Shown here in pieces: positions 2,617 through 62,370 of a stretch of 64,000 nucleotides of DNA; within the stretch, counting starts at the first letter, position 1; every line of letters starts with the position of its first letter. The notes beneath the pieces are model-generated. The model did no database searches, was not told the DNA's origin, and was given only the letters and a program-made list of their open reading frames with translations. A program made the translations under genes and the position numbers. This stretch comes from a bacterium (GTDB lineage Bacteria > Patescibacteriota > Dojkabacteria > JAKAPS01 > JAJZLI01), in the NCBI GenBank assembly GCA_021816845.1, contig JAKAWT010000001.1:198087-262086 (forward strand), read 5' to 3'.

Positions 2617-2889
2617 TTAATATCTATTATTTTCTCTTGGTTCTCTTGGTCTAGCCTCATTAACTACGATATTTCGACCGTCTAATGTACTATTGTTTAA
2701 CTCAGAAACTGCTCTTTGTGCATCTTCTTCTGTTTCCATTTCAACAAAACCAAAGCCTTTGCCTTGTCCTGTAACTTTATCCATTATTACTTTAGCTGAA
2801 ACAACTTTTCCAACTTTAGCAAAAACTTCTTCAAGCTCTGCATCTGTGATGCTGTATGGGAGCTTACCAACAAATAAATTCTTTGCCAT
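2617..2889 (-). CDS. RRM-type (RNP-1/RNP-2) RNA-binding protein, 90 aa
   Basis: RNP-2 'LFVGKLPY' and RNP-1 'KGFGFVEM' motifs. Length is typical of a single RRM. Confidence 0.85.
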   Translation of the reverse strand: MAKNLFVGKLPYSITDAELEEVFAKVGKVVSAKVIMDKVTGQGKGFGFVEMETEEDAQRAVSELNNSTLDGRNIVVNEARPREPRENNRY

Positions 2890-3221: not shown

Positions 3222-5477
3222 CTATCTCTTTAATCCGAGTTTTTTAAACATATCTTTAGTATCATCTTGTTTTTTAGCTTCTACCCCTTTGGATATAGGT
3301 AATGTAAAAGAAAACGTAGATCCTTCACCTTCCTTTGAATCTACCCATACCCTACCTCCATGTTTTTCAATAATCCCTTTAACAACATATAACCCTAATC
3401 CTGTACCACCAGGTCTTACAAGTAGATATCTTGGATCATTAGGATCCCCAGTATAATTATTAAGCCTATGAAATTTTTGGAATAATTTTGGTACATCATC
3501 GACAGCAATACCTATCCCTTGATCTTTAATGTGAACCGTCAGTTCTTTATTGTTCTCTTCTATAGATATAACAATAGTTCCTTTCTCTGAATATTTTATT
3601 GCATTTGAAATAAGATTACCTAACACCTCCTCAATCCTTGTTTTATCAGCAAACACCTGGTGCTTTATACCTTTATCCTTATATTCTATCTTTAGACCCT
3701 TTGATTCTGCATCTCTACCAAATCCTATCAGCTGTGACTCTATCATTGAAGATATATCAATGTATTCTGGTAATATTGTTATATCTGTCTTACCTAATCT
3801 TGATGCTTCAAGGAGGGTATTAACTATTCTTATTTCATTCTCTATACTTTCCACTGTTCTAGAAGTATATCTATCCAGTCTTTCCATATCATCTCTATAT
3901 TCCCTACCCTTTAATTTTATCTTAAGTTCATCAACTAAAGCTTTAGCCATATATGCATTACCTTTAACAATAGTTGCTGGAGTTCTTAATTCGTGTGAAG
4001 CAATAGACAGTAAATCATCTTTAAGTTTATCTAAGCTGGCAAGATCCTCATTAGCTTTCTTAAGCTCGACATTCTTTTTATTTAGTTCTAATGTAGCTTC
4101 TTTTACTTTTCCCTCTAAATGATTATTAAAGTCCAATACTTCCTTATATAATCTTAAATTTGTTATAAAGATTGCAATTTGTACCTTTAGTTGGCGCAAT
4201 ATCTTTATATCGTTTGTATAATATGGATCACCCGATTTCTTCCTACCAAGGAGAATCAAACATAAAAGATTATTATCAGAAATTATTGGTAATATAATAT
4301 CTACATCTGACATGTTTAAACTTTCAAAATTTTCATCCTCAGATTCACTTAGTAAAAATATATCCTTTAAATTTGATAACTTGGAGAAATTCTCTCTAAT
4401 TAAATTATTGTCTATACCTAAAGAGTGGATATCTAATGAAGCATCTGATGCTACAATTACAAATGCTATTTTAGATATACCAAATATTTTTTCTATGGAT
4501 TTACTAAATATAGAGAAAAACTTATCTATATCTATATTAGTATTAATTGACTCAAGTAAATGATCTATCTCTTCTTTGGTATTACTGATTCTTTTAAATA
4601 TAACCTTATCCAGAACTTGCTGTGATAATTCATGAAAAAGAGGAAATAATATAACAATTAAAGTAGAAAATAATATTTCAATAAATAGTTCTATCAGAGT
4701 AAGTTGAAAATTTAAAACATAATCTATTAAAAGATCAAATAAAACAAGGAGTATAAAGCTTGAAAGGTATATTAGTATATTCCTTATAGCGATGGTCATA
4801 TTGAATAATCTTTGTCTTATAATTGCGTATGATATTAAGAAGAAGATAAATACTGGATATAAATTTTCCAATAAAAGATTAAATTCTGTATTATGGAAAA
4901 ATAAAGGTAAAGTAACATTAAATATCAATACACTAATAAAGAAGAATGAAAACCCAAAAAGTATATATTTTATCTGTGCTTTTTCTTGGCTAATACTTTG
5001 CTTATATTTTATATAAAAATTCCTTATTATAAGAGTTATGTTAAAAATATTAGCTATAAGAAAAAATGCAATACCTATATTAACTGTAGGAGTTATTGTT
5101 GGATGTAGATGTACCCCAGAAAATGTTAGAGGAGAAAAAATTAATAAACTAAAAAGTAATTCATATAACAAAAATAAGAGTACTATTTTTTCTTCCTTTT
5201 TCCAGATATTTTGGGTTAAGAAAGATCTAGAGAAAAAATAAATAGATATAATTAAAGAGAATCCTAAAAAAACAGTCAACCTGATAAATAATAACGTAAG
5301 TGATCTGGAGTTAGATGTAAATGAATAATAGTCTACTATATTAAGAGCAAAGAAAAAAATTGTAACTATTAAAAAGGATACATTTTTATACACTCTTTTT
5401 CCATTAAAGAATACAAAAAATCCAAAAATAAGGATAATAAATGCTGATATAAATGTCGATAATAATGAGAAATTCAT
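3222..5477 (-). CDS. Sensor histidine kinase with large polytopic N-terminal membrane domain (about 10 predicted TM helices), central coiled coil, HisKA and HATPase_c
   Basis: H-box 'SHELRTP', N-box 'LGNLISNAIKYS' and G-boxes 'DQGIGI' and 'GGTGLGLYVVKGIIEKHGG'. The first ~300 aa are hydrophobic. Start overlaps the upstream gene's stop by 4 nt. Confidence 0.85.
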   Translation of the reverse strand: MNFSLLSTFISAFIILIFGFFVFFNGKRVYKNVSFLIVTIFFFALNIVDYYSFTSNSRSLTLLFIRLTVFLGFSLIISIYFFSRSFLTQNIWKKEEKIVLLFLLYELLFSLLIFSPLTFSGVHLHPTITPTVNIGIAFFLIANIFNITLIIRNFYIKYKQSISQEKAQIKYILFGFSFFFISVLIFNVTLPLFFHNTEFNLLLENLYPVFIFFLISYAIIRQRLFNMTIAIRNILIYLSSFILLVLFDLLIDYVLNFQLTLIELFIEILFSTLIVILFPLFHELSQQVLDKVIFKRISNTKEEIDHLLESINTNIDIDKFFSIFSKSIEKIFGISKIAFVIVASDASLDIHSLGIDNNLIRENFSKLSNLKDIFLLSESEDENFESLNMSDVDIILPIISDNNLLCLILLGRKKSGDPYYTNDIKILRQLKVQIAIFITNLRLYKEVLDFNNHLEGKVKEATLELNKKNVELKKANEDLASLDKLKDDLLSIASHELRTPATIVKGNAYMAKALVDELKIKLKGREYRDDMERLDRYTSRTVESIENEIRIVNTLLEASRLGKTDITILPEYIDISSMIESQLIGFGRDAESKGLKIEYKDKGIKHQVFADKTRIEEVLGNLISNAIKYSEKGTIVISIEENNKELTVHIKDQGIGIAVDDVPKLFQKFHRLNNYTGDPNDPRYLLVRPGGTGLGLYVVKGIIEKHGGRVWVDSKEGEGSTFSFTLPISKGVEAKKQDDTKDMFKKLGLKR

Positions 5478-6973
5478 ACTTTTATTTTTTTAAATTTTAC
5501 TTTATTATCAGTTGCAAAAGAGTTATCTTTTGAGAATTCTTCATAAGAGATTATAGGTTCAACTTTTTTTCCAAAAGTGTTATGCAGTTTAGAATATTCA
5601 CTATTTATATTTTTTAGATTAGAAATTATATATTTTTTTATATAATTAGTATCTATAGTATTAATAGTATAACCTTTTTTTATCTCTAGATTAAGTAGGA
5701 ATTTTGGGTTTTGATTTTTATCAATATCAACTCTTGCCTGAAATTTACCAGTAATATAACTCAGAAGTTCAAAAGAATTTGTAATATCTTTTATATTATC
5801 TATATATATATTAACTGAATATATTGTAATAATAACATCAGATCTTCCACTTAAATAAAGGCAAGGAAGCTTAAGATCATTAGTTTTTATATTTATATTT
5901 ATTTTTTTTGCAATATCAGATAGGAGATATATACCTCCTTTATCTTTTGTATCATATCTTAGAAATGGCATCACATCAAATAATGTTAATACTATAGTAC
6001 CATCAATTGCTTCCATATATTTAGATAAAGGATTGTACTGAGCTAAAGTTGGATATAATTTAGTTTTAAATATTTTTTCTACTAGAGATCTGTCTCTAGA
6101 TTGTTTTATTTTATACACTATATCCTTAGTGATATTAGTATCAGTAGCTAACACTCCAGATTCAGAAGATGCGGCTAAATTGCAAATAAATCTATTATTC
6201 CCTACTTTACCCAATAGATTCAGAATATATTGTCTCCATCCTAGTGTAAAACCTTCTCCTCCTGCATATATATATATATCTTTTTTATCAATTTCAATAT
6301 GGGATAATACAGCTTCATCAAGAATATCTTTAATAAAGCTTGGATATCCAATAATAACCATTTGATCATATTCACTATTTATAAAATTATTTAAAATTTT
6401 TACACACTCCTCTATATTCAACCCTGGGGTAACTACAGAAAAACCAGTGTTTTTATATGAAATTAACAATGCTAAGGCAGTTATTTGACTAGACGCACTC
6501 CATATCCCTAATCCTACAGTAACCATAAATAATGTCCTTTTCCCTTGGATGTGGAAATTATATTCAAGTGAAAGTTCTAATGTTTCTGCCATATCAATAT
6601 CCTTGATTGCTGCCCTAGCTAAATATATAGGAACACCAGAAGACCCAGAAGAACTTGTAATAGATGATACCTCGGACATATCTGTTACAAGTTCTTCTAA
6701 TGGGTATTTTGTTATATAGTTATCTTTTGATGTTAAAGGTAGTTTTTTAAAATCTTCTATAGTATTTATATTATCAATATTAATATTATGTTTTTGTAAA
6801 AACTTTACATATGCTTTAACTTTAGGAGCATAAATCTTAAAATTATTAATTATATTATCTTCACTTTGCTTCACTATATCTTTTTCAGAAATATCTTGGA
6901 ATTTTTTTATTGTATCTCTAATATCAGTATTAAAATACTCATTTAGCTTATTACGGAAATCTTTATTATTCAT
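5474..6973 (-). CDS. Adenylate-forming enzyme, PaaK / coenzyme-F390-synthetase / CapK-like (ANL superfamily)
   Basis: 'IEDFKKLPLTSKDNYITKYP...ITSSSGSSGVPIY' aligns by eye with the PaaK N-terminus 'DFrrLPfTtKadLrdnYPf...ihaSSGTTGkPt' (P-loop of ANL enzymes). 499 aa. Translationally coupled (ATGA overlaps) to both flanking genes. Confidence 0.55.
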   Translation of the reverse strand: MNNKDFRNKLNEYFNTDIRDTIKKFQDISEKDIVKQSEDNIINNFKIYAPKVKAYVKFLQKHNINIDNINTIEDFKKLPLTSKDNYITKYPLEELVTDMSEVSSITSSSGSSGVPIYLARAAIKDIDMAETLELSLEYNFHIQGKRTLFMVTVGLGIWSASSQITALALLISYKNTGFSVVTPGLNIEECVKILNNFINSEYDQMVIIGYPSFIKDILDEAVLSHIEIDKKDIYIYAGGEGFTLGWRQYILNLLGKVGNNRFICNLAASSESGVLATDTNITKDIVYKIKQSRDRSLVEKIFKTKLYPTLAQYNPLSKYMEAIDGTIVLTLFDVMPFLRYDTKDKGGIYLLSDIAKKININIKTNDLKLPCLYLSGRSDVIITIYSVNIYIDNIKDITNSFELLSYITGKFQARVDIDKNQNPKFLLNLEIKKGYTINTIDTNYIKKYIISNLKNINSEYSKLHNTFGKKVEPIISYEEFSKDNSFATDNKVKFKKIKV

Positions 6974-8118
6974 TTTACTACCTCTTCTAAATTTAGAAAT
7001 ACTTTATTATTTATTTTATTACCCAGAACTATTTGCTTTATAGCATAAGTAACGAAAACCCCAGTCAATGATGATGCCAATTTTAACTGTGACATCCAAG
7101 AAATTTCTCCTTTGGACATAGATACTATATGTCCCATAAATCTCTCTGGATATTTTTCTAGATTCAATATTTTTGGGATTATTTGACCCATCTCGATTAA
7201 GGTCAATTTTTCACTATTTTCTATTCTATCAAGTTCACTAATAGGTAATACTCCAAAGAATATTGGATCTTCTGGAGTCTCTACATTAAGAAGTAACCCA
7301 TTGCCTATATCTGTACCCATAACAACTGTAACACCATATTTCTTAGCAAGCCTTCTTAATGTTATTTTTGAAGATATAGAGTCAAAAGCGTCAATAACAA
7401 AATCAAGTTTGAATTCAGATAATAAAAAATCTTCAAGATTATTTTTTGAGATAGGTTCTTCATAGAATTTAATATTGTAATAAGGATTTAATTTTAATAT
7501 TCTTCTTCCCACTAACTGTGTTTTAATAAGTCCTATTTCATCAATTCCTCCATCCAACCTATTAAGGTTGGATCCTGATAGAGTATCAAAATCTGCAAGT
7601 TTTAAATTTTTTGAAATACCTGCGCCAACGAGAGATAATGCACTTGACTGCCCCACACTAAGACCTATAATCCCAATATTCACTTTCCTTAGAATTTCAT
7701 GCTCTTCCTTTGTCACCATATTCCTATTCCTTGCTGTGATAAGTTTATAATGTAAATCATCTGATAAACATGCAACCAATTTTTTATCCCAAGGAAAATA
7801 AACCCAATTAAATTTATCATCCAAAGACTTCTTAAATTTTTTGAATTCCTCTATGTATAAATTAGAATTCTTTAAGATATGGGGATATTCTACTTCAAAT
7901 ATTTCTTCAGAAAGTAAATCTCTTTTATCATATATAGAGTTTATCTCCATTTTTCTTATTAAAGATTCTAAACTATGATTCTTACAAGGATAAAAGATTA
8001 AATTGGAGTTTTCACCCAAAAATTGGTTACCTTTATTTTTTAATAATCCAACACTGATCATTAAAAAAAGTATATTATAAAAAATGAAAAAAAGATACAA
8101 AGTGAATATTATTGACAC
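6970..8118 (-). CDS. ThiF/MoeB/E1-like adenylyltransferase with about 120-aa N-terminal extension
   Basis: 'GIIGLSVGQSSALSLVGAGISKNLKLADFDTLSGSNLNRL' matches the ThiF nucleotide-binding region (G-rich loop, 'LvDfD.ve.SNLnRQ'). Later 'FVIDAFDS' matches the 'DctDn' motif. The first 25 aa are hydrophobic, so the true start may be a later Met (MEINSIY). Confidence 0.7.
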   Translation of the reverse strand: MSIIFTLYLFFIFYNILFLMISVGLLKNKGNQFLGENSNLIFYPCKNHSLESLIRKMEINSIYDKRDLLSEEIFEVEYPHILKNSNLYIEEFKKFKKSLDDKFNWVYFPWDKKLVACLSDDLHYKLITARNRNMVTKEEHEILRKVNIGIIGLSVGQSSALSLVGAGISKNLKLADFDTLSGSNLNRLDGGIDEIGLIKTQLVGRRILKLNPYYNIKFYEEPISKNNLEDFLLSEFKLDFVIDAFDSISSKITLRRLAKKYGVTVVMGTDIGNGLLLNVETPEDPIFFGVLPISELDRIENSEKLTLIEMGQIIPKILNLEKYPERFMGHIVSMSKGEISWMSQLKLASSLTGVFVTYAIKQIVLGNKINNKVFLNLEEVVK

Positions 8119-8170
8119 TTATTAATACCTACTATAATAGTTAATTTAGGAATTAGAAAAAATAGAAATA

Positions 8171-12546: not shown

Positions 12547-13683
12547 ATGCCTCCAGAATATATAAAGAAACAATCTATACAATTTTTTGAACTATCACTG
12601 TTAGTTTTTACCTTATTCCAAACTTTTTTTACTTTTCTAAAAAACCCATTTTATAATTTTTTCCCACTTTATAATTTTTATATCACAATAATAGGATTTT
12701 TACTTATTATAATACTCAATCGTATATACCTAAAAAATAATAATTTATATATAAAGCTTGCAAGATACCTATTACTTTTCATAATAGCAATATTAGAAAT
12801 TTATATTGCGGGAGCAAATTCAGATATATATTTAGTACTTATATTATTTTTAGAAATACAAATTGCGGCAGAAGTTCGTTCAATTAAAAATGCATTGTAT
12901 CTATTTTCTACCATATTCCTTTTATCCTCTGTCATAGTAGTAATCCAAGGTATGAGTACTATGTACCAATCATCAGCAATTTTTTTAGGATTAATAACAT
13001 TGGGCGCTATAATATTACTATTTATAAGATATAATACAGATTCTCTAAGTAAATTAGAAAATCTAGAAGCTGATATTGAAAATAAAAAAATTATAAAAAC
13101 TTCTCAAGAGAATTTTCTTTCTATAAATAAAAATATATTAAAAGAAGAATTTGCTCATATAGCAGAAATTCTAATAGATGATAATACACTACTTTATGAA
13201 ACCTATAAGGATAGTGTATATATGCAAAATCTATTCATACAAAGAGAAGATTCCTTAAAACTCCTATCTTTGAATATTGATATTGTAAATCTATATGAAG
13301 AAATATTAATAATACAAAAGGAGTTTAGTATATTTTATGATGCTAGGATAGAATATAAAATCGATGATAAAGAGACTGTACTCAAAGATCAGAACATTTT
13401 AATGGATAGAGAGAAACTAAGATCTATGTTAAGATTGATTTTTATATTTATACAAGAGAATAATATCCTGAATACAACGATAGAGATAAAAACTAACCCT
13501 CAAGGTGTGTCACTCAAAATTATTTTTCCTCAGAAATTTACAACATATTTTGCAGGTAAAACCATTAATCAAATACAAAAAGATTTTACATGGTCAAATA
13601 TTTTAATGATATATTCTAAGATAATAGGCAATGAATATATCTCCCAAGAAAGCTTTATATCTACTACCTTTATTAAAATATGA
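12547..13683 (+). CDS. Polytopic membrane protein with weakly HK-like C-terminal domain
   Basis: About 5 TM helices in the first 170 aa, then a coiled-coil region. The C-terminus has only a faint resemblance to an HK ATPase N-box. Stop overlaps the next gene's start (ATGA). Confidence 0.4.
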   Translation: MPPEYIKKQSIQFFELSLLVFTLFQTFFTFLKNPFYNFFPLYNFYITIIGFLLIIILNRIYLKNNNLYIKLARYLLLFIIAILEIYIAGANSDIYLVLILFLEIQIAAEVRSIKNALYLFSTIFLLSSVIVVIQGMSTMYQSSAIFLGLITLGAIILLFIRYNTDSLSKLENLEADIENKKIIKTSQENFLSINKNILKEEFAHIAEILIDDNTLLYETYKDSVYMQNLFIQREDSLKLLSLNIDIVNLYEEILIIQKEFSIFYDARIEYKIDDKETVLKDQNILMDREKLRSMLRLIFIFIQENNILNTTIEIKTNPQGVSLKIIFPQKFTTYFAGKTINQIQKDFTWSNILMIYSKIIGNEYISQESFISTTFIKI

Positions 13684-14897
13684 ATAAGAACCTAGATACT
13701 AAAGATATAAAGAAACAAATAATAGATAAGAAATCTCAACATGATTCTTTAGAAATTACTGCTATAGGAATCACAATAGCTTTATTTATGATTATAAGAG
13801 AAATCGTGAGCTTTAATAATTTGTATATCATAGGATTAAGTATCATTCCAATAATTGCTATTATAGGATTTTTCATTGTTTATTATATATATTACCCAAA
13901 AAATAATTACTTTGATGATAAAAAAAATAAGCTCGAGTATATACTAATAATGATTGAGCTTTTATATTTTATAATCATATCTGGAGGGCTATATGTTGGA
14001 GGTGGTATAAATTCAGTTGCAATGCTGGTATTTTTCCCATATATAGTATCAATTATCATAGATCCAAAGGATTCAAATATATTTTTATCATATTTATATA
14101 TAGATATAATCCTTTTTGCTACACTCTTTATTTTTGGATTCTATTTATTTGATTTTACAGCACTCTTTATCATTAATATATTTATGATAGTGACTGGGGT
14201 TTTGATAAAAACATTTGCTGATATAATGATGTTTAATTATCTAGAACTTGTAGAAAAAAATACAGAAGAAGATGTTTTTGAAAATGATAAAAGGGAAAAT
14301 ATAAATTTTCTAAAAACAACAATATTAGAAATTGATGAATTTATAAAAAGAATATCAATTAGAAAAGATATCAAAAAAAACATTGTAGAACTTAAAATCA
14401 TTGAACAAAAATTGAAAGACAGGCAAGAACTTCTTGATGGAGAAAAATTAAATATAAGTATTTTTCAATTTAATAAAATTGTATCTTCAGTATTACAAGA
14501 ATTATTCCCTCTAATGAAAGATAAAGCCATTCAAATACAATATCTACCATATATAAATGAAGACTTAGAAATAAATAATGATAGAGATAAAATATATTCA
14601 ATACTTTTATATTGTATTGAGAATGCAATACTATTTTCTAATGATGAAGGTATCCTTACAATAATAACAAAAAAAGAAAGAGATAATATAAGTGTTTCTA
14701 TACGCAATAATACAGATACTGAAATAGATTTGAAAAATCTATTTAAACTGGGTAACACTACTAAAAAGGGTACCAGAGAAGGAGTTGGATTATACATTTC
14801 AAAATCATTTTCTAACCTAACAAAAACGGATATTCAAATACATAAGGATTATGCAAATCTCATCATAGTTGATTTAAAAGTAAAGATCATACTATAG
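13680..14897 (+). CDS. Polytopic membrane protein with C-terminal HATPase_c-like domain but no recognisable H-box (degenerate histidine-kinase-like)
   Basis: About 6 TM helices, then N-box-like 'LLYCIENAILFS', D/G1-like 'DLKNLFKLGNT' and G2-like 'GTREGVGLYISKSF'. No 'HE[LM]RTP'-type phospho-His box found. Confidence 0.5.
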   Translation: MNKNLDTKDIKKQIIDKKSQHDSLEITAIGITIALFMIIREIVSFNNLYIIGLSIIPIIAIIGFFIVYYIYYPKNNYFDDKKNKLEYILIMIELLYFIIISGGLYVGGGINSVAMLVFFPYIVSIIIDPKDSNIFLSYLYIDIILFATLFIFGFYLFDFTALFIINIFMIVTGVLIKTFADIMMFNYLELVEKNTEEDVFENDKRENINFLKTTILEIDEFIKRISIRKDIKKNIVELKIIEQKLKDRQELLDGEKLNISIFQFNKIVSSVLQELFPLMKDKAIQIQYLPYINEDLEINNDRDKIYSILLYCIENAILFSNDEGILTIITKKERDNISVSIRNNTDTEIDLKNLFKLGNTTKKGTREGVGLYISKSFSNLTKTDIQIHKDYANLIIVDLKVKIIL

Positions 14898-56601: not shown

Positions 56602-59600
56602 TTAGAATGATGATACTACAGTATACACAATATTAGTTTGATATGTACCCGGAGATTGTATAGATTGTACTGCAACCTTATAGGTGATAGTGTAGTTAGT
56701 TGGGGTGGTAGTATAATTTGACCCTGTAATATTTGTTTGGTTCTCAGCTACAACATCTCCAGGCCCTGATTGTGAGAAAGGTGCATATAGTGTCCCGTTA
56801 GAAAAAAGGTTGACACCATTTATATCTGTAGCAGAACTGGTATACCCAAATCCATAATCTCCACTAGGCCATGAGGCTGGCGATGCATAAGACCCAGCAG
56901 AGAAATTAGGTATTGTATTTGAAGAATTTTGCAGTGACGTTAATATTGACGTTTCATAAGCAGAAATTGTATACCCGTTATAAGCATTTGTTAAAACTGA
57001 TAAAGTTGAGGTGTTAGTCGTAGTATAGGAATTAGTAGCATTCCAATCACCTAAATTAACAGCTGAAGAATTGAGAGAGAAAGACAGTGTAGGAACAACA
57101 TATTGGCCTGATGATGTAACTGTAGTAGTTAAACCAGCATTATTGATGGCCTGCACACTAACATAATATGTTTGACCGGTATGTAGAGGAAGAGATGATA
57201 AAGAAACTGTGTTATATGGACTAGGGTTATTTAGGACAACTGAAGATGAAGAATACGCATATATATTTGTACCTCCAGGAGTAGTTCCAACTGCGACTTG
57301 ATAAGGCGTAGAGGCAAGTCCTGAACAGGTATCAGAAAAACCTGTCCAATTTGCACCCAGTGATGATATTGAGGCAGTAGTATTAGTTTCTGTCCCAGTT
57401 ACTGACCCATCATATACTGTTCCTGCTGTGGGTGCACTATCAGATACGGAAAAATTAGGATTCACAGAATTGAAAACTACAGGTGAAGATAAACCACTTG
57501 AGTTCTTCACAAATGCCTGCCAATGATATCCAGTACAATTAGTTAACCCTGTGACATCTACAATCCCTGTTACAGCAGTACCAGAATAATTTACAGCAGT
57601 ACCAGAATAGTTTGGTGTACCAGTAAATGCCGTACCATTTTGTTGAAGCTCGATTTCTGGGGTAAGAGTATCAGTACTATTTGGTGATGACATAGAGAAT
57701 TGAAACACAACATTCGTGGTTATACCACTCGTAGTCCAAGTATCATTAGTAATTTGTGTAGTTCCATTTGATTGAAGTTGTTCCAAAGATGTAGGAGCAT
57801 TTGGTGCACCAGCTGTAGGTGGTGGTGTAAAATTATATTCAAAATTTACATTCTCCAAAGATGTATTTCCCACGTTATCATATATAACGACATTTAAATA
57901 GTACATACCAGATGTTGTAAGTGATGGGGAAAGATAACCTTCAGTTGTTTGAGTACTTACAGGGTAATCAGTAGCAGTCTGCCCGAAATATACACCATAA
58001 TTTGTAATCCCAGAACCTTGATCATATCCACCTAAAAATTCAAAATAGGGAGTGGTGTAAGTATATGGGGTAGGATTCCCATATGCAAGTTGAGTTAACC
58101 CTGAAGTATCTTCAACATTAATATTATCCATATTCATATTGATGCTGTCAGAAGTGGCATCAGTTACAGCACCAAGAGTGAGAGTAGTCATATTAGACAC
58201 ACCAGTATTCTGACTTGTCAAAGACACTTGTTGTGAACCATTCAAATATGTATAAATACTCCCAGTAGTACCACTAATTGATAGATCAAATACAATAACA
58301 TTCCAAGTATTTAAAGGTAAAATAGTCGTACCTTGAGAAGAAGTAGCTCCAACAGAGTTAGTAGCCTGTAGTACTGGTCCAGAGCTTGTATCTAGCAGGT
58401 TTAAAGTTGCAATTGTACCTGATGCTCCAGATATACTCATAAGTGTAATGCTATCACCAGTTGCTGCAAATGCCACAGCAGAAACATTTATATACATCCT
58501 CACTTGAGCAGAAGAAGTATTAAATGTATCATTAGCAATATAGCTTGTACCTGCTGCAGAGGTTGCCATGTTTACCGAGTATGTTCCTTGTAATACATGA
58601 CCTTGTATGTTGTTTTGGATAAGTGGGAGAGATGTTCCTCCATCTGAAGTCCAACCACCTGCAGGAGATGAAGTAGTCAAAATTGTCCCACTCTCAAATC
58701 CATTTGAGAATAAAGCTGTTGGTTGTCCAGACCAAGCAATGACATTTGTACCTCCAGATATAGGGGATGATGTGTCAATACCAAAGTCAGGATTGCCTCC
58801 CATTGCAACCCATGAGCTTACCCCATCTGCATTTTCAACTGTAGCCTGCCAGTGGTACTGAGTATTCGATGGAAGCCCAGAAATAGTGACACTTGCAACA
58901 ATACTTGTACCTGAATATGAATATGCTATACTTTTATACACTCCAACTCCTGATGTTACAAAATTAGTAGTTGAATTTGTGAAGGCAGTACCATTAGGCT
59001 GTACTTCTACCAACAAATATAAAGTGTCTGGATTATTTGGACTTGATATTGTAGCACCCAAATTTATACTATTATGGTTAAGCCACGACCCAGATGTAAT
59101 TGATGAAGAAGAGACACTTGATGTAGAGACAGCAACACCTGTTGGAGTTAAAATTGTACCATTTGCAGTTATCGAAACTTCAGTTGAAGGAAGAGTTTCC
59201 CCAGAAGATGTTATACCAGTAACTTCATAATAGTAGGTAGTCCCATATGGTATATTTCCACCAACTGATGATGTAGATGAGGATGCAATTGTGGGGGCAG
59301 TTCCTCCACTTGAAGGTGGAGAACCTGAAGAGGGAGTATTAAACCCTGAATCTATAAATGTAGTTGTAACAGAGTTATTTATTAGGAAATATGTAGTTTC
59401 TCCTCCTGAAGAACTCCCTTTATATACTTTATATGAGGTTGCCCCACTCAAGGCATTCCACGTAATTGTGTTTTGATTAGTATTGGTATATGCAACATTT
59501 AAAGTTGATGGAACATTAAGATATCCCCACAATACATATTGATATGTGTTAGTACCATCATATCCTCCCACTGTGTATACATACCCATTGTATATTACAG

Positions 59601-62370
59601 CATTTTCATTATCTATAGTTTGAGGTAGAGAATTTGTTGATGTTGCCCACGTTCCGGGTACTCCTCCAGTACCTATTTGTGCATATTCTATTGTAGATAG
59701 ATAATTACTACCAGTAAAACCCCCAATTTCATATATATATCCGTTATATACTATAGAGGCTGAATAATCAGTATTTTGAGGTAATGAATTGGTTGACGTA
59801 CTGAAAGTACCTGGTGCTCCGCCTGTACCTATAAGGGAATAGTCTACTGTATTTAAATAACTCCCATCATATCCGCCAAATACATAGATATACCCATTAT
59901 ACACTACTGAAGTATCGTGAGTTTGAGCATTAGGTAGAGAATTTGTTGATGTTGCCCACGTTCCAGGTACTCCTCCAGTACCTATTTGAGAATAATAAAC
60001 TGTTGATATACGTGCAGACGTTGTTCCGTCATACCCTCCAAGCTCATATATGTATCCTCCATATTCAACTGAGGTAGAAGAATTGATTTCTGCAGGAAGA
60101 GGGTTTGTTGCAGTAGTCCACGCACCTGGAGCTCCACCTGTACCTATAAGTGAGTAGTAAACTGCAGAAGATATTGCAGTACTACTAGTAGATCCTCCTA
60201 ATACATAAATATATCCTTGATACACCACTGAAGTTGCAAAATCCAGTCCCACAGGAAGAGCATTTGCTGCTGTTGCCCAAGTACCTGGTACACCTTGATT
60301 ATTAATCTGTGAATAGTAAACCGAAGATAAATAAGTTGAACCATTCAATCCACCTATATCATATATATATCCACCATATTCAACTGATGTGGAATATAGA
60401 ATAGATGCTGGCACAGCATTATTAGGGTTTACCCATGTACCTACTGTCCCGCCAGAAGCAGTTGGTGTATACTCTACTATAGTCACTGCAGCACTACCGT
60501 TATATCCACCCATATCATATATGTATCCGTTATATACAACTGAGGTAGTTCCAAACAAAGAAGTATTAAGGGATGTTGTAGCTGTCCATGACCCTAGTGT
60601 CCCTCCAGAGTTTATTGGTACATAATACACAGAATTTGTAGCAGCAGTAGTAAAGCCCCCTATCTCGTATATATATCCATTATATTCTACTGAAGTAGAA
60701 TTATATGTAGCAACAGGTAGGGAGGTTGTAGCTGCCCATGATGACCCTAGGGTACCATTAGAGTTTATAGGTATAGAATTTACCGTAGTCACTGCTGCAC
60801 TACCATTGTATCCTGCTATATCATATATATATCCGTTATATGCTATTGAGGTAGAGTTGTCCATCTTGACGGGCAGGGCTGTGGTAGAATTCCATGCTGA
60901 ACCTAAGGTACCATTAGAATTTATAGCTATATAATATACTGTAGTCACTGCTGCACCAGCAACATACCCTCCAATTTCGTAGATATAACCATTATATACT
61001 ACAGATGTAGCCGAATCTATAGAAGGAGAGAGAGATGTGGTAGAATTCCATGTACCTAATGCACCAGAAGATAATATTTGAGCGTAATACACAGCATTTG
61101 TAGATGTAGAACAAGAAGTATCTGTACACCCCCCGATTTCATATATATAACCATTGTATACTACAGACGTAGCGGAATTTAATGGTACAGGTATAGGAGT
61201 TGTAGTTATCCATGATGTACCTAACCCACCTGATGATAAAATCTGAGCATAATATACATTAGACAAGGTTGTCCCACCACTATTCTCACCACCGATCTCA
61301 TACACATATCCGTTATACTCCACAGATGTAGCATATTCATCAGTTTGGGGTAGTCCAGCGCTAGATAATAGTGGATTATTATTCCCTATGTTAATCCAAT
61401 TTAGATTTCCTGTATCTGTAAGGTATGAATTAGTGGTATTTATGTACTGAGCCATTGTTGACGACCCAATACCTCTATACACATTATATGAAGTTGCTCC
61501 CACTACAGGATTCCAAGATATTTTATTTTCTGACGTAGATCCTGTCGTGGTTACTGAAACTGCAGCTGATGGAGTAGTTTGCCCATAAGAAGTTAGAGCT
61601 GCAACTTCATAGTAATAAGTATTTGCAGATAAAGTTCCTCCCAAGAGTGATTGAGTTAAAGTTGTAGGAGCATTTGGAACAGGAGGAATAGTGAGTGTAA
61701 CAGTATTAGAACTAATACTCCCTGCAACCACATACAGATTATCAGTTCCTATAACAGAACCAGATGGTATTGTAAATACTATTTGAGTATTGGACCATGA
61801 TGTAACATCCCCTGTTGGGACTGTGTTACCTTGTATATTAATATTATTAGTTGATGTATCATAATTACCTGTACCAGGAGCACCAAATTCTGATCCATTT
61901 ATAGTAACACTTGTACCATCATATCCTGATGTAGGCGAAATTGAAGTTATACAAGGATTGATGGTAAATGCAAAAGATGCTGTACGATTTCCAATATTAA
62001 CATTTATATTCCCTGTAATAGTTCCTAAAGGTACCACTACTCCCGCTATTTGCGTATTAGACCAAGTATAGTTACTATTTGAAGGCGATGAACCATTTAC
62101 AGTAACAGTTGAAGAGCCCTGTGTTGATCCAAAATTTGATCCATTTATATTAATTGTATCTCCTACTCTTGCAGATGTAACAGACGTTGTAACAGTTGAT
62201 GAACATGCCGTTGCAGTAAGATCTACTGATGATATTGAAGGAGGCGGTCCAGCATATATAACACTTGTAATAAATATTAAGAATATAAGGAATATAGGTA
62301 TAGATATAAATAAAATCAAGCTATAGAATTTATTATATAGAATTTTATCTAAAAGTAGGCCTTTACCCAT
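56602..62370 (-). CDS. Giant (1922 aa) secreted surface protein: N-terminal signal anchor, Ig-like domains, about 15 Kelch-like 'NGYIYEIGG' repeats, two FN3-like modules, and a C-terminal WxL-like (YxV) motif
   Basis: Single uninterrupted ORF with N-terminal 'LILFISIPIFLIFLIFITSVIYA'. The repeats 'TSVVYNGYIYEIGGY...YYAQI...G.LG.W' are roughly 50 aa each. 'GATSYNVYRG' and 'GATSYKVYKG' are FN3-like. C-terminus 'SPGTYQTNIVYTVVSSF'. Confidence 0.6.
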   Translation of the reverse strand: MGKGLLLDKILYNKFYSLILFISIPIFLIFLIFITSVIYAGPPPSISSVDLTATACSSTVTTSVTSARVGDTININGSNFGSTQGSSTVTVNGSSPSNSNYTWSNTQIAGVVVPLGTITGNINVNIGNRTASFAFTINPCITSISPTSGYDGTSVTINGSEFGAPGTGNYDTSTNNINIQGNTVPTGDVTSWSNTQIVFTIPSGSVIGTDNLYVVAGSISSNTVTLTIPPVPNAPTTLTQSLLGGTLSANTYYYEVAALTSYGQTTPSAAVSVTTTGSTSENKISWNPVVGATSYNVYRGIGSSTMAQYINTTNSYLTDTGNLNWINIGNNNPLLSSAGLPQTDEYATSVEYNGYVYEIGGENSGGTTLSNVYYAQILSSGGLGTSWITTTPIPVPLNSATSVVYNGYIYEIGGCTDTSCSTSTNAVYYAQILSSGALGTWNSTTSLSPSIDSATSVVYNGYIYEIGGYVAGAAVTTVYYIAINSNGTLGSAWNSTTALPVKMDNSTSIAYNGYIYDIAGYNGSAAVTTVNSIPINSNGTLGSSWAATTSLPVATYNSTSVEYNGYIYEIGGFTTAATNSVYYVPINSGGTLGSWTATTSLNTSLFGTTSVVYNGYIYDMGGYNGSAAVTIVEYTPTASGGTVGTWVNPNNAVPASILYSTSVEYGGYIYDIGGLNGSTYLSSVYYSQINNQGVPGTWATAANALPVGLDFATSVVYQGYIYVLGGSTSSTAISSAVYYSLIGTGGAPGAWTTATNPLPAEINSSTSVEYGGYIYELGGYDGTTSARISTVYYSQIGTGGVPGTWATSTNSLPNAQTHDTSVVYNGYIYVFGGYDGSYLNTVDYSLIGTGGAPGTFSTSTNSLPQNTDYSASIVYNGYIYEIGGFTGSNYLSTIEYAQIGTGGVPGTWATSTNSLPQTIDNENAVIYNGYVYTVGGYDGTNTYQYVLWGYLNVPSTLNVAYTNTNQNTITWNALSGATSYKVYKGSSSGGETTYFLINNSVTTTFIDSGFNTPSSGSPPSSGGTAPTIASSSTSSVGGNIPYGTTYYYEVTGITSSGETLPSTEVSITANGTILTPTGVAVSTSSVSSSSITSGSWLNHNSINLGATISSPNNPDTLYLLVEVQPNGTAFTNSTTNFVTSGVGVYKSIAYSYSGTSIVASVTISGLPSNTQYHWQATVENADGVSSWVAMGGNPDFGIDTSSPISGGTNVIAWSGQPTALFSNGFESGTILTTSSPAGGWTSDGGTSLPLIQNNIQGHVLQGTYSVNMATSAAGTSYIANDTFNTSSAQVRMYINVSAVAFAATGDSITLMSISGASGTIATLNLLDTSSGPVLQATNSVGATSSQGTTILPLNTWNVIVFDLSISGTTGSIYTYLNGSQQVSLTSQNTGVSNMTTLTLGAVTDATSDSINMNMDNINVEDTSGLTQLAYGNPTPYTYTTPYFEFLGGYDQGSGITNYGVYFGQTATDYPVSTQTTEGYLSPSLTTSGMYYLNVVIYDNVGNTSLENVNFEYNFTPPPTAGAPNAPTSLEQLQSNGTTQITNDTWTTSGITTNVVFQFSMSSPNSTDTLTPEIELQQNGTAFTGTPNYSGTAVNYSGTAVTGIVDVTGLTNCTGYHWQAFVKNSSGLSSPVVFNSVNPNFSVSDSAPTAGTVYDGSVTGTETNTTASISSLGANWTGFSDTCSGLASTPYQVAVGTTPGGTNIYAYSSSSVVLNNPSPYNTVSLSSLPLHTGQTYYVSVQAINNAGLTTTVTSSGQYVVPTLSFSLNSSAVNLGDWNATNSYTTTNTSTLSVLTNAYNGYTISAYETSILTSLQNSSNTIPNFSAGSYASPASWPSGDYGFGYTSSATDINGVNLFSNGTLYAPFSQSGPGDVVAENQTNITGSNYTTTPTNYTITYKVAVQSIQSPGTYQTNIVYTVVSSF
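59490..61330 (-). repeat. Tandem array of about 15 diverged ~150-165-nt coding repeats (Kelch/propeller blades) inside the giant gene
   Basis: Recurrent DNA words (for example 'tatatatatccgttatat', 'gtacctatttg', 'gttgatgttgcccacgttcc') that encode the repeated NGYIY[ED]IGG / 'PGTWA' peptide units. Confidence 0.6.

Follow-up and report, generated by a model that had tools for sequence, protein, structure and literature searches.

What could two different adenylating enzymes, a ThiF-like protein and a PaaK-like adenylate-forming ligase, have to do with a polytopic membrane histidine kinase encoded immediately downstream of them? This question is raised by three overlapping minus-strand genes of a Dojkabacteria bacterium (Patescibacteria), which lie in a stretch of 64,000 nt (~30% GC) of contig JAKAWT010000001.1, hereafter the window. 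The reading that we favour, and to which we attach a probability of about 0.5, is that the triad constitutes a compact small-molecule synthase and sensor-kinase cassette related to oxazolone (azlactone) biosynthesis. An earlier note on this DNA had preferred a module that makes a ligand by adenylation and feeds a sensor kinase, an idea to which the conservation of the cassette in varied contexts and the existence of predicted ThiF/PaaK-like fusions, both described below, lend support.

The three open reading frames (ORFs; Table 1) are joined by a 4-nt ATGA stop/start overlap at both junctions, as the earlier note had read them and as is seen in the junction sequences themselves (gtaaaATGAataat at 6970-6973 and agtATGAatttc at 5474-5477), and all three genes have identical or homologous proteins in public assemblies. 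The first ORF stands as previously described but the length of its product does not: the 382 aa assigned to it are counted from the most upstream GTG, at 8118, to which the frame is open, whereas public records place the start at the ATG at 8061, yielding a protein of 363 aa (P0017).

The ThiF-like protein contains the GLSVGQ loop and the motif LADFDTLSGSNLNRL, quoted earlier as a ThiF/MoeB-type nucleotide-binding signature, and matches the Pfam ThiF domain PF00899 with an E of 1.2e-20 (74 bits vs a cut-off of 28). Its top match in NCBIfam is NF005901, the “Rv1355c family” (193 bits, E 7e-57, model positions 24-327 of 722), the second-best ThiF family reaching 73.5 bits, and fused ThiF-nitroreductase proteins (P0055 and P0075) align with it from one end to the other. 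The ATP/Mg residues D157, D159, N165, R168, K180 and D227 (363-aa numbering) are invariant over 14-23 homologues. An AlphaFold2 model of the protein (pLDDT 88.7) has AclA of Tenacibaculum discolor (PDB 9egb/9egc) as its first Foldseek neighbour, followed by ThiF, UBA5, PaaA, MccB, MoeB and TcdA, which places it in the ThiF fold (E 1e-9 to 1e-16 for ThiF, MoeB, UBA5 and TcdA). Among solved structures AclA, determined “in complex with substrate”, lies closest (Foldseek E 4.5e-16, TM-score 0.83 on the target), and it is also a sequence match (E 6e-7). Judged by profile score, the window ThiF is best matched to the small-molecule cyclase clade Rv1355c/TrzS/OxzB/TyzB and is not a ubiquitin-type E1; this connection with oxazolone biosynthesis had escaped the earlier note.

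The 499-aa product of the second gene displays the PaaK/F390-synthetase-type N-terminal motifs ascribed to it previously (DFKKLPLTSKDNYITKYP...SSSGSSGVP) and belongs in the ANL/PaaK superfamily on the strength of its match to TIGR02155 (E 3.9e-16, aligned positions 46-452), of its match to the PDB structure of PaaK 4r1l (E 4.7e-7) and of the ANL motifs, even though a Pfam scan of the protein gave no match, AMP-binding included. These motifs comprise the SSSGSSG P-loop (A3; G110, G113), GGE (A5; E240), RYDTKD (A7; R339, D344), GRSD (A8; R377, D379) and the predicted catalytic C-terminal lysine K491 (A10), and their residues are invariant or nearly so in 16 homologues. Because the TIGR02155 score of 58.6 bits is far below the equivalog cut-off of 646.3, the protein is, by its sequence, a member of a distinct PaaK-like family and not a PaaK equivalog. 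It aligns with the PaaK structures 4r1l and 2y4o over most of both domains, and shares with them the fold family and the adenylation motifs, but differs from PaaK in having an N-terminal extension of ~45 aa and in its biosynthetic context, PaaK being encoded in the paa catabolic operon. A word-index search that returned 16 relatives had made this PaaK-like family appear rare, a view that was dropped after an exhaustive HMMER search retrieved 1037 cluster representatives at E<=1e-30.

The third protein, of 751 aa, is a histidine kinase, as had been recognised from its H/N/G boxes and its membrane domain of ~10 helices; indeed, ~9-10 hydrophobic segments are found in residues 5-277 (Kyte-Doolittle), the H-box SHELRTP and the N, G1 and G2 boxes of HATPase_c are intact, HATPase_c matches with an E of 4.9e-29 (101 bits) and HisKA with an E of 2.2e-5 (24.9 bits, just below the 26.9 cut-off), and WalK, PnpS and PhoR-type cores of NCBIfam match at E 1e-37 to 1e-42. 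The membrane domain resembles HisKA_7TM, for which the match is weak in the window kinase (E 0.0067) and clear in the orthologues of loci L001 and L015. What had been overlooked is a GAF domain between the membrane domain and HisKA: a profile of seven orthologous segments matches the PDB GAF sensor 3o5y (E 1.2e-9) as well as the GAF domains of DevS and phosphodiesterases, and Pfam GAF, GAF_2 or GAF_3 is found in five of the seven orthologues. The statement that the kinase has no response regulator nearby is correct for the 64-kb window, in which a hidden Markov model (HMM) built from 61 receiver domains found no receiver (best E = 1), but does not hold as a trait of the system, since a stand-alone receiver is encoded within 6 kb in 46 of the 80 related loci described below.

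The clade to which the ThiF protein is assigned has a chemistry of its own. ThiF-dependent oxazolone biosynthesis was discovered between 2020 and 2025, OxzAB being the founding example (bioRxiv 10.1101/2020.06.11.147165; review PMC12596934). In the known enzymes the ThiF domain adenylates the carboxylate of the amino acid, after which the amide oxygen closes the oxazolone ring. Rv1355c, that is TrzS, has been shown experimentally to be an ATP-dependent N-acyl-Trp cyclase/desaturase, the cyclase of which yields by itself a saturated oxazolone (PMC12856293). TyzB, a ThiF cyclase that stands alone, has the oxidase TyzC and the acyltransferase TyzA as its partners (PMC10404671). The role of the oxazolones has been named a “major unresolved question”, and signalling is suspected by the authors of these studies (PMC12856293; bioRxiv 10.1101/2020.06.11.147165). 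A full-text literature search, with a 2009 survey of the E1 superfamily outside its scope, found neither a paper linking oxazolone, ThiF or N-acyl amino acid synthase (NAS) clusters with histidine kinases nor one on a PaaK-like/ThiF/kinase cassette in Patescibacteria.

Is the triad peculiar to this genome? When the ThiF alignment was scanned over species-representative genomes, 575 relatives were found and the best 80 loci were analysed; 8 of these are cut off at the cluster, so that 72 could be assessed for kinase linkage. A polytopic kinase is present in 65 of the 72, invariably on the same strand and downstream, and within 150 bp in 60 of these 65 cases. As for the conservation of the neighbourhood, the triad is kept at ~30% identity in differing genomic contexts; thus, in the Daviesbacteria locus L001 it occurs at 31% identity with unrelated flanks, and it is found also in the syntenic relative L003.

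Two types of cassette are distinguished. The Patescibacteria type (37 loci) consists, in order, of an optional receiver, an optional ELFV (Glu/Leu/Phe/Val) dehydrogenase, aromatic ammonia-lyase (PAL) or aminotransferase, the PaaK-like ligase, the ThiF protein, a nitroreductase (in 29/37), the polytopic kinase and an optional receiver. The Bacteroidota type (36 loci; L013, L014 and L037-L095, e.g., L052:7896-14141) consists of a divergent stand-alone receiver, an Rv1355c-family ThiF, a 230-aa protein designated X233, a 7TMR-DISM kinase and a REC-HisKA-HATPase hybrid, and is carried by Dyadobacter, Algoriphagus, Cyclobacterium, Sphingobacterium, Pedobacter, Niabella, Chitinophaga and Owenweeksia. 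In this second type the nitroreductase is fused to ThiF in 13/36 loci and none is encoded within 6 kb in the remaining 23/36; the fused protein of Dyadobacter is a bona fide member of the Rv1355c family (741 bits vs the cut-off of 476). Sequence searches with X233 gave no Pfam, NCBIfam or PDB match, and the protein, labelled GNAT in some UniRef entries, was identified by its predicted fold only, the closest folds to its AlphaFold2 model (pLDDT 88.5) being those of the CoA-dependent acyl-homoserine lactone (AHL) synthase BjaI and of the N-acyl amino acid synthase FeeM. These two enzymes are the structural relatives given for TyzA and OxzA (PMC10404671). The PaaK-like gene and X233 are mutually exclusive over the 80 loci (37 vs 36), which suggests that the ligase and X233 fill the same step; no homologue of an X233/NAS-type N-acyltransferase is encoded in the window, where the PaaK-like ligase stands in that place.

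The window belongs to a subtype of the Patescibacteria cassette, common to L001, L003, L006, L017-L020 and L022, that lacks the nitroreductase and has a GAF kinase of ~750 aa; a phmmer search with four nitroreductase queries found no homologue in the 64-kb window. In several loci of this subtype stand-alone receiver genes follow the kinase, and receivers flank L018-L020, L022 and L001 as well as the Bacteroidota cassettes. Elsewhere a split nitroreductase lies beside the PaaK-like and ThiF pair (L009, L010, L015 and one JGI contig), that of L015 matching the C-terminal half of Rv1355c and PRK14851 (176 and 204 bits). In more distant loci the pair is accompanied by an ELFV dehydrogenase, by PAL or by an aminotransferase plus DAO, and the majority of the relatives have an oxidase of the nitroreductase type and an enzyme that deaminates amino acids as parts of their cassette. 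Furthermore, L006, a relative with 51% identity, has genes for an aminotransferase and a DAO-type FAD oxidase on the opposite strand, inserted between the ThiF and PaaK-like genes (L006:5602-7866); the operon is broken there, and amino-acid-deaminating enzymes are still in the cluster. Predicted fusion proteins join the same partners in several orders, namely PaaK-like-ThiF (P0107), ELFV dehydrogenase-PaaK-like-ThiF (P0108), ThiF-PaaK-like (P0113) and ELFV dehydrogenase-PaaK-like (P0196), a merging of gene calls being possible in these cases.

Two further features of the related loci may be recorded. In a Kaiserbacteria locus (L050:10011-15035) three tandem paralogous 7TM histidine kinases follow the PaaK-like, ThiF and nitroreductase genes. 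Four metagenome-assembled genomes labelled “uncultured Gammaproteobacteria” (L018, L019, L027, L035) carry the Patescibacteria-type cassette, with a ThiF identity of 37-38% to that of the window; either these bins are mislabelled or the distribution of the cassette is wider.

A single pathway logic is supported by the families to which the proteins are assigned, by the fusions and by the mutual exclusion of PaaK-like and NAS partners, and from it we infer the following sequence of events. The PaaK-like ligase would adenylate a carboxylic acid, supplied in the relatives by the adjacent deaminating enzyme (ELFV dehydrogenase, aromatic ammonia-lyase or aminotransferase/DAO) and plausibly of the 2-oxo or cinnamate type, and would join it to an amino acid, either directly or via a thioester, to yield an N-acyl amino acid, thereby taking the place of the N-acyltransferases OxzA, TyzA and TrzA. 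The ThiF-like enzyme would then adenylate the carboxylate of the N-acyl amino acid, allowing the amide oxygen to close a 5(4H)-oxazolone ring as in TyzB, TrzS and OxzB, and in the cassettes that have one the flavin oxidase would desaturate the oxazolone. Because the window subtype is devoid of a nitroreductase-type oxidase, its product would be a saturated oxazolone (a reactive acyl donor) or what hydrolysis or aminolysis makes of it. Finally, the invariant position of the polytopic kinase in the operon suggests that the co-translated GAF histidine kinase may either sense the lipophilic product or control its synthesis, the response regulator to which it signals presumably being encoded at another place in the genome. 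What would be new here is an oxazolone-type biosynthesis that has a different first enzyme, often dispenses with the oxidase and is hard-wired to a sensor kinase.

How does this arrangement compare with known systems? With TyzACB of Mycobacterium tuberculosis (PMC10404671) it has in common a stand-alone ThiF-like ATP-dependent cyclase, TyzB, which is separate from the flavin oxidase and acts on an N-acyl aromatic amino acid, and the split ThiF/nitroreductase layout recurs in related Patescibacteria cassettes. In TyzACB, however, the N-acyl amino acid is produced by the acyl-CoA-dependent GNAT-type TyzA, whereas the window has an ANL ligase; furthermore, the TyzC oxidase has no equivalent in the window and no histidine kinase is linked to TyzACB. 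With regard to TrzAS (Rv1356c/Rv1355c) and OxzAB, the cyclase half of Rv1355c is the top family match of the window ThiF. The ATP-binding Asp motif, shown by D217A to be essential in TrzS, is retained as a motif in the window protein, and signalling genes, in that case for c-di-GMP turnover, adjoin the trzAS locus too (PMC12856293). Unlike the window, TrzAS and OxzAB consist of a ThiF-flavin oxidase (FDO) fusion and an N-acyltransferase, the window having no FDO and a PaaK-like ligase instead of the transferase, and the signalling protein linked in the window is a polytopic histidine kinase. The autoinducer circuits agrBDCA and LuxM/LuxN-type AHL sensing resemble the triad in that the gene or genes for signal synthesis share an operon with a polytopic membrane histidine kinase, and the Bacteroidota X233 is predicted to have the AHL-synthase/FeeM fold. 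On the other hand, the chemistry of a ThiF cyclase and an ANL ligase is entirely unlike that of these circuits, the signalling function of the window cassette is a putative one, and the window has neither a DNA-binding response regulator in the cassette nor any receiver domain.

A wider proposal, which we put forward only tentatively, is that oxazolone/N-acyl-amino-acid molecules could be autoinducer-like signals and the downstream polytopic kinases their dedicated receptors, in a so far unrecognised system of Patescibacteria (candidate phyla radiation, CPR) and Bacteroidota in which, on the CPR side, a PaaK-like amide-forming ligase fed by deamination would replace the acyl-CoA-dependent N-acyltransferase.

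Several points weigh against the oxazolone cassette. Since the cyclase half alone is present and half of the model is covered, the window ThiF reaches 193 bits against NF005901, less than the cut-off of 476 bits for the full-length family, and the C-terminal third of the protein departs from the family consensus. Two of the three parts that define the known oxazolone pathways, the flavin oxidase and the N-acyltransferase, are not in the window, and the formation of an amide by the PaaK-like ligase is an assumption, as its product could instead be a CoA thioester that an unlinked transferase would use. The frequency of the kinase linkage is subject to a sampling bias, the 80 loci having been picked by their likeness to the window ThiF, and the actinobacterial relatives L060 and L086 are among the loci without a kinase. 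Lastly, an hhalign comparison of the kinase membrane domains of Patescibacteria and Bacteroidota gave a probability of 21%, so that the homology of the sensor domains of the two phyla is not demonstrable; the kinase linkage may therefore have two separate origins, or may stem from regulation and not from reception, and the model of a common receptor is weakened.

The last point bears on the rival that survives best, in which the enzymes are the same and the kinase is merely an upstream regulator sensing an unrelated external cue, such as envelope/membrane stress or a host signal, and turning on the genes of the biosynthesis, the product being an antimicrobial, a membrane lipid or a stress metabolite and not the ligand of the kinase. 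We regard this as rather unlikely, somewhat more so than the signal-receptor proposal. That the sensor domains differ by phylum, HisKA_7TM in Patescibacteria and 7TMR-DISM in Bacteroidota, would fit the recruitment of any convenient regulator; N-acyl dehydrotyrosines are antimicrobial according to the literature, and antibiotics induce oxazolone production in Proteobacteria while the tyz locus of M. tuberculosis is tied to oxidative stress (PMC12856293; bioRxiv 10.1101/2020.06.11.147165). Yet the kinase gene follows those of the enzymes with translational coupling and is not divergent from them, in a position that is the same in 65/65 loci, the synthase-receptor layout is typical of autoinducer circuits, and most cassettes have stand-alone receivers only and no DNA-binding regulator in the operon.

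Three other readings were considered and are disfavoured by the evidence on partners, gaps and domain distribution. Sensory proteins that are loaded with a ligand are known: tyrosine ammonia-lyase and p-coumarate ligase load photoactive yellow protein, and bilin loads the GAF domains of phytochromes. By analogy, the ligase and the ThiF protein might make a cofactor or a chromophore-like ligand for the GAF domain of the kinase itself, a domain that the window subtype indeed possesses, and the co-occurrence of an aromatic ammonia-lyase with an aryl-acid-type ligase in 10 related cassettes recalls the synthesis of the photoactive yellow protein chromophore. The distribution of the domains makes this improbable: the PAL cassettes have short kinases (~540 aa) without GAF, the GAF subtype is without PAL, and in the Bacteroidota cassettes, where the N-acyltransferase is of the acyl-CoA type, the GAF domain is lacking.

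Slightly less probable still is a role of the ThiF protein like that of MccB and PaaA, namely the modification of a ribosomal peptide at its C-terminus, with the kinase then sensing the mature peptide in the manner of agr-type quorum sensing. Such a peptide, ribosomally synthesized and then modified post-translationally (RiPP), would accord with the Foldseek alignment of the whole ThiF model, N-terminal alpha/beta domain included, with MccB and PaaA, and ThiF-like enzymes are common in RiPP pathways (PMC12596934). This N-terminal domain, however, is also present in enzymes of the Rv1355c family that act on small molecules, and the partners are small-molecule enzymes (dehydrogenase, lyase, ligase); furthermore, no small ORF fit for a precursor peptide or a ubiquitin-like protein flanks the operon, and the gaps of at most 150 bp in 60/65 loci are too short for a conserved precursor gene to fit in.

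That the triad is an E1-like system, with non-canonical partners, for protein conjugation (ubiquitin-like), which was the alternative offered by the earlier note, or for sulfur-carrier chemistry is very improbable and finds no support here. The ThiF fold does have an intact ATP site, and PADLOC returned weak matches of a generic kind to E1 domains in CBASS Cap2-type models, but these matches are limited to the common Rossmann region, the ThiF clade is one of small-molecule cyclases, and neither the window nor the ~90 related loci contain a gene for a ubiquitin-like, ThiS/MoaD-like, E2 or JAB protein, an absence that the same note had observed near the operon. A reading of the locus as a defence system was rejected as well: PADLOC gave the generic Cap2 E1-domain matches for ThiF and nothing for the ligase or the kinase.

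The coordinates of the features are collected in Table 1. The spacer upstream of the ThiF gene offers the only room for a putative operon-specific promoter; a scan of the AT-rich operon DNA for promoters and terminators returned a number of sites not above that of shuffled sequence, and an Rfam search of the operon region gave nothing credible.

Table 1. Features of the ThiF/PaaK-like/kinase operon in the window
Feature	Position	Strand	Basis
ThiF-like ATP-dependent cyclase or adenylating enzyme (putative), Rv1355c/TrzS/OxzB/TyzB clade, 363 aa	6970..8061	-	PF00899 and NF005901 matches
PaaK-like ANL-superfamily adenylate-forming ligase, 499 aa	5474..6973	-	TIGR02155, PDB PaaK, ANL motifs
Polytopic sensor histidine kinase, 751 aa (membrane domain, GAF, HisKA, HATPase_c)	3222..5477	-	Pfam and NCBIfam
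Kinase membrane domain, ~aa 1-280, HisKA_7TM-like	4638..5477	-	Kyte-Doolittle segments
Cytoplasmic GAF domain of kinase, ~aa 300-455	4113..4580	-	Orthologue profile vs PDB and Pfam
Kinase core, HisKA + HATPase_c	3294..4022	-	HisKA aa 486-562, HATPase_c aa 611-728
Spacer, AT-rich, 109 nt, between ThiF start and upstream cyclophilin gene	8062..8170	-	Sequence

The surroundings of the operon contain other genes that deserve mention. Directly downstream of the kinase, and in the same place in L003, a 90-aa single-RRM RNA-binding protein is encoded (2617-2889, minus strand; RRM_1, E 1.2e-24). Two overlapping plus-strand genes for polytopic membrane proteins (12547-13683 and 13680-14897) form a pair that is syntenic in L003; in the product of the second, HATPase_c matches weakly (E 5.6e-6) and no HisKA or H-box domain can be recognised, and the pair may represent degenerate or atypical kinases. 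The plus-strand gene at 727-2556, which adjoins an FtsA/MreB-like fragment at 61-723, specifies a 609-aa protein that has a single hydrophobic helix at its centre and a long C-terminal region rich in Ser, Thr and Asn, and whose 609-aa counterpart in L003 has no Pfam match on record. A very large minus-strand ORF (1922 aa) occupies 56602-62370.

What does the cassette mean for the bacteria that carry it? The near-obligate linkage within the same operon, found in 65/72 loci and in two phyla, names a concrete candidate receptor or regulator for molecules of the oxazolone class, and the existence of culturable carriers such as Dyadobacter, Algoriphagus, Sphingobacterium, Pedobacter and Niabella makes the question accessible to genetics and biochemistry. 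If our reading is correct, an ANL ligase fed by amino-acid deamination would represent a new biosynthetic entry into the oxazolone pathway, a route that would suit CPR bacteria with their minimal lipid and CoA metabolism, and the cassette would constitute a candidate chemical-communication system for these largely uncultured, symbiotic bacteria.

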